Of a DNA stretch of 64,000 nucleotides, positions 37,948-44,543 are shown one piece after another. Source of the DNA: Rickettsiales bacterium UBA4311 (GTDB lineage Bacteria > Pseudomonadota > Alphaproteobacteria > Rickettsiales > Deianiraeaceae); NCBI GenBank assembly GCA_002394665.1, contig DGUL01000007.1, positions 30,860-94,859 on the forward strand, in the 5' to 3' direction. Every line of letters starts with the position of its first letter. Positions within the stretch are counted from its first letter, which is position 1. A model generated the notes under the pieces. It did not search any database and was not told the DNA's origin. It saw only the letters and a program-made list of their open reading frames with translations. Made by a program: the position numbers and the translations under genes.

Positions 37948-40656
37948 GTGAGAGTTGTTTTTTCAATACTATTTGGCTTTGCTATATTGATAGCCATATC
38001 TGTATTGATTAGCCTTGTCCCGATGAATTTCGTCGGCGATAGTGCAATAAAATACGCACAACAAGCAGGAATTGAGCTTTCTTCGCAGACAAATTGGAAT
38101 TTGCGATTACTCGGTTTAAAAGCTAATACCGGAAAAATAACATATCGTTTTAATCTTGATGGCTACGAAATAAGTGGATACGGAGAAAATTTTACTTTTG
38201 GATTAACAAACCATAATATCAATTTTGATAATCTCATCGTAGATTTACTTATCGATAAAAAAGAGGAAATGACAGAATTTTTTGAAAAAATTATCAGTAA
38301 AATAAAAGACAAATATGTTTCTATATCTGCAACAAATTTAACAATAAACATCTATGCAAAAAACGAAAATGATGAAAAAAACATAATTGAAGAGCTTTTA
38401 TTTAATAACTTTGAAATTACAAAAACAAAAGAGAAAGCCTCTTATAGAGCCTCGGCAAGCACCGGCAAAGAAGAAAACATTGAGTTTTTATTAAAGCAAA
38501 ACAATATTGGAAAAAAGAACTATGAAACTAACGGAAAATTGGAGGGCAAAAACATTGAATGCTTTTTATACAGCAATGAAAAAACAGAAGAATTTAATTG
38601 CAAAACTGGGAATTTTTTAAAATTATTAAATGAAGTTGGCTTTAACGTCAAGGACGATGATTTAAAGAAAATTTTAAAAAAAAGCATCAAAATTGTAGCA
38701 AATGCCACAAAAGACAAAAACAACGAAAGGACTACATTGAGTGGAAGTTTTGTATTAAATGGCTCTGTTGGGCAAATTTCAACCGATAAAGAAGGATCTA
38801 TAAATCTAAAATTTAAAGATATAAATTTTGACGACGTTGTAAAAGATGAAGAAAACGAGGAGGAAGATGACGAAGAAGATAAAAAAACGACAAAAAAAGA
38901 AGAATGGCATAAACTCGCTATGTCAGGAGAAGAAAATAAGTTTATAGAAGGAGCAAAAAAAAAAGGCATTCAAGAAAATATAAACTTTGTCAGCAAAATT
39001 ATAAAAACCTTTTACACAATATTCGACAGAAGTGATTTTAAAATAAAAACCGAAATAGACACAGCAACAATAAACTCTCAACAATTGAAAAATATTATAA
39101 TTTCCACCTCAAAATCTAAAAATTCAAATATATCTTTTGCGGGAACACGAATCTATAATGCTAATGCCGTTGATTTAATTGAGATTAAAAATTTTGATGA
39201 TGAAAACGATATTTTTACATTCGCCGGCACGGACATTAAAAACTTATTTGCATTATTTAATTCGCCATTGATAAACAAGGAGCTCAATACAAATAGTTAT
39301 ATTATTAGTGGAAAATTAGCATTAAAAACCAACGGCTTTGAATTTAAAAATGTAGAAATGACAATTGATGACGCGAAGATTGCGACAATAAACCTTTCAA
39401 AATACCACAATAGTTTAAACAAAATTGTTTCAACAAAGAAAAGTTTAGTCGTGCAAAATGTTAATATAAACGAAATTTTTGATTTAAAACCATTTTATAA
39501 AAAATATTATGATAAATTTGAACTTTTTCAGCAAAAAAACGAACAAGAACCAATCTTTTGGCAAAAGCTTTTTGAGAAGAGGAAGAAAAAAACCTCGCGT
39601 TTTAAGTATGAAAGTCGAATTATACTTGATAACGTTTTACTGGAGAATATTAAAATTGAAAACTTTTTATACGAACTCAATGATGGCGAAAAAAACACCG
39701 AATTAACTATAAGTGCACTATCACCTTTCCTGAAAGGAACTGCCGGTTTTAGTCTAAAAAATATAGATGAAAAAGAGACAATAAATGGAGATGTAAAAAT
39801 TGATAAAATAGAGATGCAATATTTGAATGATTTAAATAATAGTTTAAAAACCGCAACCGGCAAAAACATTGAAGAAATATTTTTTGAAGACAAAGAATAT
39901 AATATACCTTCTTTTCTCGGAATAAATGGCAATATAAATCTAAATATAAACTTTGCTGTTTTCTCGCAAAATAACACAATACAAAATCTTTCAAGCAATT
40001 TTACAATCAAAGACGGAACATTTGAAACCAACGATTTTACGGCAGAATATGGAAATGGAAAAATAAGTGGAAATGTCGTTCTTTTCTTGCGTGAACGTCC
40101 ACAAATTAATGCTGGCATTGTTTTATCGGGAATAGATATAAAAAAAACAATCACCCCGTATATCGGAGGTCTATTATCCGTACAAATGGAAATTTCTTCA
40201 AGTAGTTTTAACCCTATTGATTTTATTAAAAGACTTAACGGAAAAGGAAAATTTGTAATCAACAATTTGAGTATACCGAATTTCAACATACAGGCAATTG
40301 GTATTGATAGCATAAAAAACGGAATAAATAAAACAACAAATTACTTGCAATTGATAGAAAGAAGCAACCTTAAATTCCCACAAGCAGAAGGAAATTTTAT
40401 AATGGAAAACGGCATCATTACTGCAAATATGATGGCATCAACAGAACTTGTTTCTTGTAATGCAAATCTGGAATACATATTTACAACACAAATAATAAAA
40501 AAACTTTTTGGAATATTTGCCGTAGTTATTTCCAGAAATAAATTCGAAAGTCCTATGCAAATTTACATACCTTATGCTTGCAATGAAACGATTTTAAACC
40601 CTTCTTGTATATTTGATCTGGATCAATTAAATAAAGTCATAAAATCGATAAATTGA
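37948..40656 (+). CDS. AsmA-family-like large envelope protein
   Basis: N-terminal anchor VFSILFGFAILIAISVLISLV, ~900 aa of beta-rich repetitive sequence, and C-terminal IKDGTFETNDFTAEYGNGKISGNV resembling the AsmA C-terminal region. Confidence 0.5.
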   Translation: MRVVFSILFGFAILIAISVLISLVPMNFVGDSAIKYAQQAGIELSSQTNWNLRLLGLKANTGKITYRFNLDGYEISGYGENFTFGLTNHNINFDNLIVDLLIDKKEEMTEFFEKIISKIKDKYVSISATNLTINIYAKNENDEKNIIEELLFNNFEITKTKEKASYRASASTGKEENIEFLLKQNNIGKKNYETNGKLEGKNIECFLYSNEKTEEFNCKTGNFLKLLNEVGFNVKDDDLKKILKKSIKIVANATKDKNNERTTLSGSFVLNGSVGQISTDKEGSINLKFKDINFDDVVKDEENEEEDDEEDKKTTKKEEWHKLAMSGEENKFIEGAKKKGIQENINFVSKIIKTFYTIFDRSDFKIKTEIDTATINSQQLKNIIISTSKSKNSNISFAGTRIYNANAVDLIEIKNFDDENDIFTFAGTDIKNLFALFNSPLINKELNTNSYIISGKLALKTNGFEFKNVEMTIDDAKIATINLSKYHNSLNKIVSTKKSLVVQNVNINEIFDLKPFYKKYYDKFELFQQKNEQEPIFWQKLFEKRKKKTSRFKYESRIILDNVLLENIKIENFLYELNDGEKNTELTISALSPFLKGTAGFSLKNIDEKETINGDVKIDKIEMQYLNDLNNSLKTATGKNIEEIFFEDKEYNIPSFLGINGNINLNINFAVFSQNNTIQNLSSNFTIKDGTFETNDFTAEYGNGKISGNVVLFLRERPQINAGIVLSGIDIKKTITPYIGGLLSVQMEISSSSFNPIDFIKRLNGKGKFVINNLSIPNFNIQAIGIDSIKNGINKTTNYLQLIERSNLKFPQAEGNFIMENGIITANMMASTELVSCNANLEYIFTTQIIKKLFGIFAVVISRNKFESPMQIYIPYACNETILNPSCIFDLDQLNKVIKSIN

Positions 40657-40670
40657 AAAAACCTGATAAA

Positions 40671-42644
40671 CTAATTTTGCAAAACTCCCCAGTGTAAAGC
40701 TGGTTTTTTCTTTGGATTTTGTTGAACTATTCTTCCATAATAATCGTCAAAAGCTCCTTTCTTGGCTCTATTGCTTACAACAACCACTTGTCCATCTCCG
40801 TGAATAACCAAAATAGTTTGAACAAATTTTTTTCTAACATCTAATTTACCTTTTTTTAAAGCAAAAATATTCTCACCCAGCAAACTCGTGGTAGCTAAAT
40901 GGATAAAATAATTATATCGCTTATCTTCAAAGAACAAGATTTTACTACTATTTATCGCAACATTTTTTAGAGAAATATCTCCGTCATTATAAATAAATTC
41001 AATGTCAATAATGCCGAAACACTTAATTTTTTCTAAAATAGCAAAAGCGTAACTTTCTATCGCTTTTTCACAGCTGTAATCGCAACCAACTATTGGACTA
41101 AAAAAACAATGCAAATTATTACTTGAAACAAATTCCTCACCTACGACCTTATGAAAAATTGCGTTATTATAACGATCTTTGAAGCATAAGAAATGTAAAA
41201 TTTTTTGTTCTTGATCTAAACGTTCTCCTTGAAACGTAAGATTGCATTCATTTGACAAGTCAATAAGAGCTTCGTTGTGAAGAAATTTAAAATCTCTATT
41301 TAATCCTAAAAAACGTATCGATTTCACTCTACATAACTTATTAAAACAATTCTCATTTTCACGAATAGGATTTAAAAAAACATCACTAATAGAATAACTT
41401 TTAATTACCACTTTTAGCTCCTCTTCTAACGAACCATTGTCTGCAATAGTAATAATATCGCATTCCGGCAATAAACCAACTAAACAAGAAAATTGGTCTG
41501 AAATATAAACAAGTCTGCAATTTTTGACCTTATTGAGCTCTTGGCAAATCCTGAAAAATAAAAGTCTATCATTTATATCACTATCTTTTTCACGAAAATC
41601 TACAATTAACAAATTTTCACCAAAACCAAAAGCTTCATACTTTCTGATAAAAACAACTTCATTTTTATAGGAAAAACTTTGCAATGTTTCATTATTTTTT
41701 TTCAAAAAAAACAATAAACGCTCAACGGAACATATGGATTTCTTATTTAGAAAGCTAACAACTTTTTCAAAAAAACAATTGCTTGATTTTCTAATAAAAC
41801 AAATCCCATTCTTGCCATTATCTTTTGAGTAATAAAAAGTTTCTCTATTCATTTTCGGGAAAATATAAAATCTCTCGTGAATATTTCTTATCAGATTTTT
41901 ATGGTTAATTATTTTTTTCTCCAAAAAAAACAAAACCTCGTCGCAATTTCCAAATTTAATATCATTAAAAAAAATCTTACCACTCTCAACAGAAACCTTG
42001 ATGCAATAAAACGTTTTTTTACATTGAATAAATTCACCAAAATTATCAACTATTGCTCTTATTTTTAGCAATTCATCCACATCATAAAATCCAGTTTCTG
42101 AGCAAAATAAACAATTTTTGTCATCATAAAAACTTTCAAAAATATCTAAAACAAGCTGTTGTTCAAAGTTGTCTTTTATACAAATGAAATTCAAAAAATG
42201 CTCTCTTTTATTTTTTTCAAAAAACTTTAAACTTTTTCTTTTCGTAGAAAAACCAACCTTTTTAGCAAAAGGTATTAAGTTTTTTGTATTTTGTTTATTT
42301 GTATAATAATCACTGTACACATTTTCAACTTTGTTTTTTTTAAAAAAATCATTTAAACCGCGTATAATTTCATCGCAATCACCAATCGTAGGATAAACAC
42401 AATTGATTTTAAATTTTTTAACAATTTTTTTTATCTTTTTCTCTGTTATTTTCTCAACAAAAAAATGAACCCTATCAGGAAGGGCTAATTTCATAGTTTC
42501 TGTGGAAGAGAAAAAATAAATATTTACATCTTCACTAATAGCTTCAACACTCTTATAAATCTCAACAATGTTATGCTCCAAAAAAGTCCTATCCTGCAAA
42601 CAAGAATAAATAAACAAAACATTTTTGCCGATTTTTTTCGTCAT
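40671..42644 (-). CDS. degenerate carbamoyl-phosphate synthase large-subunit-like protein (duplicated ATP-grasp scaffold, catalytic motifs eroded)
   Basis: Hand alignment to CarB. KNVLFIYS...[28 protein letters not shown] aligns with KSILILGAG...[53 protein letters not shown]...[14 protein letters not shown] aligns with [24 protein letters not shown]...LAKVAARVMAGKSL. A second internal repeat starts at ENLLIVDF. The Gly-rich loops are absent. Confidence 0.45.
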   Translation of the reverse strand: [657 protein letters not shown]

Positions 42645-42728
42645 TCAATAAAAACAACAAAATATAATATAAAAAACAAGTATGAATAAAACATTGAATA
42701 CGGCTTAAAAAATGCTGTTCAATAAAAA

Positions 42729-44543
42729 CTAAACCTTCACTACACCGCTGTTCATCACTTCAAAAAAATCTTTATTGTCTTTTGTTTTTTTTAACTTCTC
42801 CAACAAAAATTCCAATGCTTCAGCTGTATTATTTGCTCCGTTGCCAGCCATATTTATTAAAATCCTTCGTAAAATCCAAGTCTTTTGCAACTCCTCCTTT
42901 TCAACCATTTCCTCTTCTCGTCTTGTGCCTGATTTTAAAATATCAATCGCAGGGAAAAGCCTCTTTTCAGCAATCTTTCTATCTAAAACTATTTCAGAAT
43001 TTCCCGTTCCTTTGAACTCTTCAAAAATAACTTCATCCATTTTCGATCCAGTTTCTACAAGTGCAGTTGCTATAATTGTGAGCGAACCTCCGTTTTCAAT
43101 ATTTCTCGCAGCACCAAAAAATCTTTTTGGTTTTTGCAATGCATTTGAATCAACACCGCCGGTCAAAACCTTTCCAGACGATGGAGCAATTGCATTATAG
43201 GCCCTTGCTAATCGTGTTATGCTATCAAGTAAAATTATAACATCCTTGCCATCTTCAACCATCCTTCTGGCTTTCTCAATAACAATCTCAGCAAGTTCAA
43301 CGTGTCTTTTTGCAGGCTCGTCAAACGTAGAACTAACAACCTCGCCCTTTACGGAACGAACCATATCAGTCACCTCCTCTGGCCTCTCGTCAATCAATAA
43401 AACAATCAACTCAACTTCCGGATGATTTTCATTTATAGCGTGAGCTATTGCTTGCATCAAGAAAGTTTTACCTGCTCGTGGAGGAGCTACAATCAAGGCT
43501 CTTTGACCTTTGCCAATTGGACACATTAAATCAATAACTCTTGTAGATACGGCTTCTTTTGGGTTGCTTAATTTATCAAATTTTAACTTTTCTGTCGGAT
43601 AAAGCGGGATTAAGTTGTCAAAATTGACTTTGTTTTTCATTTCATCAACCTTTTTGCCGTTAATTGTCTCAATTCTAACGACAGAAAAATATCTTTCCTG
43701 TTTTCTTGGTTCTTTTATGTAAGCCCCTACGACATCACCTTGACGAAGACCGAGTTTTCTTATTTGATTTTGAGAAATATAAGCATCATATGAAGAAGGA
43801 CGATAATTATTACTACTGTCCCTCAGAAAACCAAAACCACCTTCATTTATAACTTCCAAACATCCATCAACATAAAGTCCCTCGCCTTTGATCGCTGATT
43901 GCTTTAAAATTGCAGAAATTATGTCTTGTTTTAGCATTCTATTAAGGTTCTGAACCTCATATTTTTCAGCAATTTCAATCAGCTCATCCAAATTTTTGTC
44001 TCTCAAATCTTTTACATAAGTGACCTGCTCTGTATTTATAACATATTCCTGTTGCAGTTGTCTGTCTTGCATCATTCTATTTCTTCTCTGAAAAAAATTA
44101 TTTCTCTCATCTTCATTTTTGGCATTTACTTCGTCACTGGTGATGTTCGCGACATTAGCATTGGCTGTATTTGCAATATTCTGTAAATTATTATTTTCAA
44201 AACCAGAGGCACCATTTTCTCCGTTCTTCAACTCGCCTCCTTCGTTTAAATTATTAGAACTATTTGCGTTATTGGAATTAAGATTTAAATTACGAAGTCC
44301 AAGGTCAAAGCTACCTATTTTACCACTTTCTTTTTCGTTGTCGTTTGTAACTGTTCCATTATTTAAACCCAAATTCAAATTACTCTTTTCCATTGAACTA
44401 AAACCTATTTTTTTTCTTTCACTGCTCTCAACAGCAACATCGTCATTCTTAACACTTTTTAATGCCTTTTTTCGTGTAGAAGTTTTACTTTTCCTATCCT
44501 CTTCAACAGAAGAGGTATTTAACAATTCATTGTCATCAACCAT
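42729..44543 (-). CDS. rho: transcription termination factor Rho with ~175-aa Asn-rich N-terminal extension
   Basis: Canonical part from [13 protein letters not shown] onward: RNA-binding GFGFLR, Walker [27 protein letters not shown], and the C-terminal SGTRREE. Confidence 0.95.

Follow-up and report, generated by a model that had tools for sequence, protein, structure and literature searches.

We analysed a stretch of 64,000 nucleotides (nt) from the genome of Rickettsiales bacterium UBA4311 (contig DGUL01000007.1), here called the window, and focused on an open reading frame (ORF) on its minus strand that directly follows rho. The gene probably encodes a pseudoenzyme derived from CarB of carbamoyl phosphate synthetase, a double ATP-grasp protein without lids that is kept by selection and is usually expressed from the rho locus. 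It would be a CarB descendant that keeps two tandem ATP-grasp modules in a CarB-like arrangement and that no longer has either B (lid) domain, the oligomerisation region, the allosteric domain or any of the ATP- and Mg/Mn-binding residues of CarB. Because lids and ligand residues appear to be lost, canonical ATP-grasp chemistry would not be expected, which leads us to call the protein a putative pseudoenzyme.

An intact reading frame in a divergent family under selection

The ORF occupies window positions 40671-42644 on the minus strand, starts with ATG and runs for 657 amino acids (aa) without a stop, as the original prediction, which was made from the sequence by eye, had described. The GC content of the window is about 30%, which makes chance stops frequent, so that a frame of 657 codons is not accidental. 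At this length the protein falls 416 aa short of E. coli CarB (1073 aa), close to the roughly 400 aa estimated earlier. Its parts, with the evidence that defines them, are as follows.

40671-42644, minus strand: whole ORF, predicted lid-less tandem ATP-grasp CarB-like protein, 657 aa plus stop (ORF call, AlphaFold2 model, whole-length matches to CarB and CPS1)
41904-42644, minus strand: N-half, aa 1-247, with a Rossmann-like A domain (1-130) and an ATP-grasp C-domain core (148-247) (separate model, structure search, hhalign, conservation)
42204-42248, minus strand: short low-confidence loop, aa 133-147, at the site of CarB's first B (lid) domain (anchor distances, model confidence)
41619-41903, minus strand: variable, poorly modelled helical linker, aa 248-342 (model confidence, family insertions and deletions, anchor distances)
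40671-41618, minus strand: C-half, aa 343-657, with a second A domain and a complete ATP-grasp C domain and no allosteric domain behind it (VIA structure search, hhalign)
41199-41237, minus strand: short connector, aa 470-482, at the site of CarB's second B (lid) domain (anchor distances, hhalign)

A Pfam scan of the window protein alone found no domain, the only hit being a chance match to FAR1. The NCBIfam model for CarB (TIGR01369) scored the protein at 12.1 bits (E 0.026) against a cut-off of 1027 bits, aligning residues 516-601 with model positions 791-877, and at 11.6 bits when the bacterium's own genome was scanned; a PurK match was also below threshold (E 0.064). Among PDB sequences, phmmer with the single protein returned nothing significant (EarP alone, at E ~2) and the family profile had no match. 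A word-indexed search of 5.8 billion proteins with protein and profile queries, a search that AT-rich words swamp, recovered two close relatives only, and comparison of the protein with the genome-contig collection recovered none. When 1.84 billion representative proteins were scanned exhaustively with phmmer, 26 relatives emerged, all of them from ENA or Logan metagenome assemblies and none named in any source. Fifteen members are full-length (637-693 aa), can be aligned over their entire length with identities of 22-59% and are all free of stops; these make up the family alignment (A1) used below. When members were scanned singly, Pfam recognised ATP-grasp in two (best E 8e-5) and CPSase_L_D1, the CPSase pre-ATP-grasp domain, in two (best E 0.038). 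The CPSase_L_D3 and MGS-like domains had no Pfam match in the window protein or the members.

Ratios of nonsynonymous to synonymous substitution (dN/dS) were estimated by the Nei-Gojobori method; dS is near saturation (proportion of synonymous differences, pS, 0.56-0.68), and the ratios are rough but clearly not neutral. The window gene and its closest relative (59% aa identity) gave 0.17, three orthologues at about 80% identity gave 0.11-0.13, and the N-half, linker and C-half were each below 0.3 when taken separately. For the same genome pair the values were 0.017 for the rho core, 0.07 for an E1 dehydrogenase subunit, 0.15 for RNase III and 0.13 for a neighbouring 902-aa ORF. Divergence within the genus is nonetheless high: the window genome (G000) and G001 have true CarB proteins that are 90-92% identical and family proteins that are 28% identical, and the Rho cores of G000 and G006 are 82-84% identical with adjoining family proteins at 24%. 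The family is under purifying selection yet evolves much faster than housekeeping genes, its proteins being 24-28% identical where Rho is 80-84% and CarB 90-92% identical. Comparison of orthologues had been suggested as a check on the claim of an intact, selected gene: 15 of 15 full-length members are open, with dN/dS at 0.11-0.17, and decay through stops or frameshifts was seen in none of them.

Internal duplication and profile match to CarB

We compared A1 by hhalign with an alignment of 14 CarB proteins (E. coli CarB and 13 from relatives of this genome). Profiles of the N-half and C-half of the family align with each other over 200 columns (E 5e-10), and both halves share the motif form [CI]-x-K-D-x-x-x-N. 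The N-half profile matched the N-terminal half of CarB (CarB-N) at E 2.4e-4 and the C-terminal half (CarB-C) at E 0.15, and the C-half profile matched CarB-C at E 9.4e-6 and CarB-N at E 0.11. The match between the halves and the preference of each for its cognate partner indicate that the duplication is real and that the halves look like counterparts of the two halves of CarB. The N-half match places residues 62-88 on E. coli CarB 65-91, in a region that holds a P-T-x-G segment of the CarB-N type. In the C-half, residues 483-596 correspond to CarB 762-877, and the anchors P517 (CarB P797) and G544 (CarB G824) are invariant in the family. The matches are co-linear, 400-506 on 617-719 followed by 483-596 on 762-877, with 13 aa standing in for about 70 between them. 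CarB landmarks that had been aligned by hand in both halves were thus recovered independently (62-88/65-91 at E 2.4e-4; 483-596/762-877 at E 9.4e-6).

Predicted fold and structure searches

AlphaFold2 run on A1 gave a model of the whole protein with a mean predicted local distance difference test score (pLDDT) of 76 and a predicted template modelling score (pTM) of 0.77. It consists of two well-modelled halves (1-245 and 343-640) and a poor linker (246-341), with pLDDT below 50 at 138-145, 246-311 and 314-341; the N-half modelled alone reached pLDDT 86.8. A second repeat had been proposed to start at ENLLIVDF (residue 343), and this coincides with strand 1 (E344-348) of the second Rossmann-like domain in the model.

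Foldseek searches of the PDB with the whole model had human CPS1 and E. coli CarB as the top hits (E 4e-18 to 1e-15, TMq 0.61-0.64), followed by single-module carboxylases and ATP-grasp enzymes at E ~1e-9. In a shape search of the ESM Atlas the nine nearest rows were all CarB clusters (TMq 0.60-0.73; 466-577 residues aligned at a root-mean-square deviation (rmsd) of 4.1-4.6 A), and CarB clusters were also the best matches of the Atlas's own ESMFold model, which is independent and of low confidence. An exhaustive VIA search of 48,161 chains with the N-half returned E. coli CarB (1a9x_A) at the top, with Z 15.6 and 246 of 250 residues aligned at rmsd 3.7; CPS1 followed at Z 13.5, and biotin carboxylases, the best matches other than carbamoyl phosphate synthetases, reached at most 12.8. 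The C-half matched CPS1, the biotin carboxylase domain of pyruvate carboxylase and PurK at Z 17-18.6 by VIA, with 264-298 residues aligned, and its modelled structure is that of the carboxylate-activating ATP-grasp clade in general. The ATP-grasp chains that match the halves number in the hundreds, and each half has the order that marks the ATP-grasp fold, an A domain followed by an antiparallel C domain. The model thus predicts tandem ATP-grasp modules in the pseudo-twofold packing of CarB. The overall likeness to CarB held when checked by structure (CPS1 and CarB best in Foldseek and the Atlas) and by profile (hhalign significant for both halves), and so did the duplicated ATP-grasp architecture, with N- and C-half profiles at E 5e-10 over 200 columns and each half folding as an ATP-grasp A and C domain.

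Deleted domains and altered catalytic positions

Deletions were measured as the spacing between conserved anchors in the window protein and in E. coli CarB. The P-T-x-G anchor (G88, CarB G91) is 70 aa from D158 (CarB D223) in the window protein vs 132 in CarB, about 62 aa less, and N425 (CarB G643) is 65 aa from D490 (CarB D769) vs 126, about 61 aa less. Each of these gaps has the size of a B (lid) domain and each falls at a short, low-confidence connector (133-147 and 470-482), from which we conclude that both lids are gone; loops of 11-13 aa replace about 62 aa at these sites. The distance from the E299 equivalent to the start of the second module is 115 vs 254 aa (about 140 less), which points to loss of the oligomerisation region, and that from the E841 equivalent to the C-terminus is 96 vs 232 aa (about 137 less), which points to loss of the allosteric domain. 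Together the four deletions amount to about 400 aa, near the 416-aa shortfall. The Asp anchors lie 58 aa (62 in CarB) from the Q285 equivalent and 59 aa (60 in CarB) from the Q829 equivalent; with these spacings unchanged, the first part of the C domain is retained. The linker (aa 248-342) takes the place of the end of CarB's first synthetase domain and of its oligomerisation domain, and members differ there by insertions and deletions.

We mapped 11 positions at which CarB binds ATP or metal, and the family conserves none of them. In the C-half, E761, H788, Q829, N843, R845 and R848 of CarB correspond to I, S, E, A, N and K of the window protein, all in columns that vary among the 15 members. 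E841 corresponds to N and lies in the least variable column, which holds D or N in 13 of 15. N-half positions were mapped through the internal alignment of the two halves and are less certain than those of the C-half: Q285, E299 and N301 correspond to K216, D228 and K230, all variable, and R303 to a conserved Gly. The lids, the part that is deleted here, are where the Arg residues and Gly-rich loops that grip the ATP phosphates are located. With these lost and the catalytic positions not kept, canonical ATP-grasp catalysis does not appear credible, and grasping of ATP between B and C domains would be precluded by the apparent absence of a B domain from both halves. It had been proposed that the E/N metal ligands and the Gly-rich loops were replaced. 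That is so for the ligand positions, which are unconserved in the 15 members; the anchor spacing shows that the loops were not substituted but were deleted along with the whole B domain in both halves.

Conserved polar residues are found mostly in the N-half (S14, D49, D89, D158, N162, Q163, D167 and E236), with D490 and N494 in the C-half. By topology, those of the N-half lie in the loops after A-domain strands 1, 2 and 4 and in the first C-domain hairpin, and in the model they may form one pocket. In Ddl, PurT, PurK and PurD, which are active ATP-grasp enzymes, the acceptor-substrate pocket is lined by the same loops.

The genuine carB of the genome

The window genome (1.01 Mb in 13 contigs, 87% complete) carries a genuine carB on contig C11 (C11:88157-90855 = L002:1507-4205), about 900 aa long and without an allosteric domain, next to a gene with an ArgC-like N-terminus. 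Its product is 44% identical to E. coli CarB in the N-half and 37.5% in the C-half. The idea that the window ORF is the remnant of the genome's only carB was therefore rejected, and the window gene is better described as a paralogue or an acquired relative of CarB. The halves of this carB are in different frames, with the switch at an A7 tract in the linker between them and an N-half ORF of 498 aa; a homopolymer assembly error, a split gene or an inactivating frameshift could account for this. The carB genes of G001 and G003 are single ORFs of 900-904 aa. Both a true carB and the family gene are present in G001 and G007. We also rejected the idea that presence of the family tracks carB: in these incomplete assemblies, G004 and G006 have the family gene with no carB found, and G003 shows the reverse. 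A search of the 87% complete window assembly for carA (TIGR01368) found none and gave at best 31.9 bits, against a cut-off of 307, for a GATase-like stretch at C11:153359-153763.

Distribution and association with rho

DNA of the window genome occurs in gut-metagenome runs, and bovine-gut runs account for small shares. Within the genus, five of the seven other genomes were found to have the family, as were none of the 33 genomes from other genera of the family and order, so that among the genomes searched it is restricted to one genus. The one match outside the genus, in G022, was rejected as that genome's real CarB, aligned by residues 507-600.

The statement that the gene lies directly downstream of rho was confirmed, with rho ending at 42729 on the same strand, 84 nt away.

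42729-44543, minus strand: rho, 604 aa, with an Asn-rich N-terminal extension of about 175 aa (Pfam Rho_N, Rho_RNA_bind, ATP-synt_ab)
42645-42728, minus strand: spacer between rho and the ORF, 84 nt (site scan)

Promoter-like and terminator-like sites were looked for in the 84-nt spacer and none were seen. In 8 of 11 contexts the family gene comes right after rho, with both on one strand (G000, L015, G006/L009, G004, L117, L118, L119 and L121), and the spacing in the relatives ranges from a 20-nt overlap (L118) through a 3-nt gap (L119) to about 110 nt. The two genes are apart in G001, G002 and L120; in G007 both are at contig ends, where adjacency cannot be judged. Beyond the pair, the upstream side varies between RNase III, RpoZ, YebC and a giant ORF, and the downstream side between the 902-aa ORF, Era, S15 peptidase and MnmG, which leaves rho as the only conserved neighbour. 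No divergent homologue was found behind rho in other genera, where G009 has a Mur ligase and G008, G010, G013, G015 and G026 have unrelated or opposite-strand genes.

The nearest Rho sequences to that of the window are alphaproteobacterial. Its Asn-rich N-terminal extension is encoded at window positions 44019-44543 (minus strand). Across the genus, rho genes or open frames are 557-652 aa long, vs 424-513 aa in most other families of the order, and the Rho core from residue 166 is almost invariant among seven aligned sequences. A complex prediction for the N-half, the C-half and the Rho core (166-604) gave a score of 0.00 and a mark of 0.32 in a run without controls, and counts neither way.

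Interpretation and alternative explanations

Several points weigh against a CarB-derived pseudoenzyme. In sequence searches the window protein is under every curated family threshold, with no Pfam domain and no PDB match even for the family profile. The packing of the halves is a prediction from 15 sequences by AlphaFold, which has seen CarB structures. The halves resemble each other (E 5e-10, 200 columns) more than they resemble CarB, and their lids are missing at the same place, so that later re-duplication of a single lid-less module could explain the protein. In that event it would not be a descendant of CarB: one module from the PurK, biotin carboxylase or CarB clade would have been duplicated in tandem within the lineage, and the packing would reflect convergence or model bias. 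The common deletion point and the shared [CI]-x-K-D-x-x-x-N form make one deletion followed by one duplication the more parsimonious course, and the C-half is equally close to CPS1, pyruvate carboxylase and PurK (Z 17-18.6). We still consider such an origin rather unlikely, because the E-values of both halves favour the cognate half of CarB by two to four orders of magnitude, the N-half carries the P-T-x-G segment of CarB-N and scores Z 15.6 with CarB vs 12.8 with the best match outside the carbamoyl phosphate synthetases (2.8 units), and the superposition on CarB spans the whole length, with 466-577 residues in the nine nearest Atlas rows.

Loss of activity, too, is something that we infer from sequence, and the D or N at the E841 equivalent in 13 of 15 members and the invariant acidic set of the N-half may make some non-canonical catalysis conceivable. 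The protein would then still be an enzyme, with the acidic cleft of the N-half (D49, D89, D158, D167, E236) performing lid-free chemistry or binding a nucleotide in a new way. This would fit the invariant or nearly invariant polar cluster of the N-half, the conserved D490 and N494 of the C-half and a dN/dS of 0.11-0.17, which is typical for working proteins. It has a small but real chance of being right, given that both lids with their Gly-rich loops and ATP-phosphate Arg are absent, that no canonical position other than E841 is even partly kept, that 24-28% identity in a genus where CarB is 90-92% identical is unusual for a core metabolic enzyme, and that searches against Pfam, NCBIfam and the PDB detected no known catalytic motif in the window protein. 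We attach next to no weight to a decaying carB pseudogene or a chance uninterrupted frame. The loss of all catalytic features and the very fast sequence evolution would be expected of a pseudogene, but 15 full-length homologues at 22-59% identity are all open in an AT-rich genome where stop codons arise easily, dN/dS stays well under 1 in the N-half, the linker and the C-half, and the family alignment yields a confident fold prediction; the open homologues and dN/dS led us to reject decay.

The CarB-derived pseudoenzyme that we prefer would fit an operational definition of that term, an enzyme homologue without catalytic residues that is under purifying selection. Of the repurposed pseudoenzyme originally proposed, the loss of catalytic residues and selection on the frame thus stand, and the repurposing itself we infer. 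We favour a non-catalytic binding or scaffold role, in which the open cleft of the N-half (S14, D49, D89, D158, Q163, D167, E236) would be the working surface, and the gene would be co-transcribed with rho. A lineage-specific Rho accessory, a scaffold translated from the rho operon that binds Rho or its Asn-rich extension and modulates termination, is a more specific proposal that we judge improbable as it stands; if true, it would add a new kind of partner to those of Rho and be the first case of a CarB-derived pseudoenzyme.

Relation to known systems

CarB is among the most conserved enzymes and a textbook case of ancient internal duplication, and we know of no non-catalytic CarB descendant that has been described. 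If our reading is right, the double ATP-grasp scaffold can outlast removal of both lids and all catalytic residues, and selection retains the lid-less form even though the genome, at about 1 Mb, has little room for spare genes. Its steady place behind rho amid changing neighbours is a lead to function. The immediate reach is modest, since the family has few members, which are confined to uncultured gut bacteria.

With CarB itself (E. coli 1a9x, 1bxr and 1c30; human CPS1 5dot and 5dou; TIGR01369, PRK05294) the window protein shares tandem homologous ATP-grasp modules, their predicted packing, co-linear A and C domains and structural anchors (P-T-x-G after strand 4 and the equivalents of P797 and G824). 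It differs in being 416 aa shorter, without B (lid), CPSase_L_D3 or MGS-like domains, in keeping no Mg/Mn, ATP or K+ loop residues and in coexisting with a real carB. The A and C domains also superpose on the biotin carboxylase domains of pyruvate and acyl-CoA carboxylases, on PurK and on PurT (Z 17-18 for the C-half, 10-13 for the N-half); those proteins have one module, a lid and a K/E/E/N/R active-site set, whereas the window protein has two modules and neither lid nor set. Split or shortened CarB proteins (the M. jannaschii-type split carB, PDB 2pn1, and the carB of about 900 aa in this genus) show that CarB can withstand being split and losing the allosteric domain, but they keep lids and catalytic residues and score 416-1056 bits on the CarB model vs 12 bits for the window protein. 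A full-text literature search for CarB-derived pseudoenzymes found none, and the sole ATP-grasp pseudoenzyme it returned was TTLL12, which has an ATP-grasp-type fold without the expected ligase activity (PMC3520985). That protein, from eukaryotes, belongs to a different clade (tubulin-tyrosine-ligase-like), has one module and does not derive from CarB.

A neighbouring gene and CarB in related genomes

The 902-aa ORF (window 37948-40656, plus strand) converges on the gene described here, with 14 nt between its end and the stop codon of that gene. Its product has a hydrophobic segment at the N-terminal end, matches no Pfam family at E <= 1 and is 69% identical to its counterpart in the contig of the closest relative. 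The carB of G007 has three in-frame TGA codons in its C-half (C7:2458-3726) and none in its N-half, and may be a decaying gene or reflect a local sequence problem. CarB of several sister genera is a single open frame of 1208-1492 aa (G013:C94:1041-5354, G024:C2:43770-48050, G010:C5, G012:C7, G018:C45 and G023:C36) that matches the CarB model in three to four separate blocks, which points to large in-frame insertions near model positions 155, 340, 480 and 630, from about 50 to about 250 aa long.

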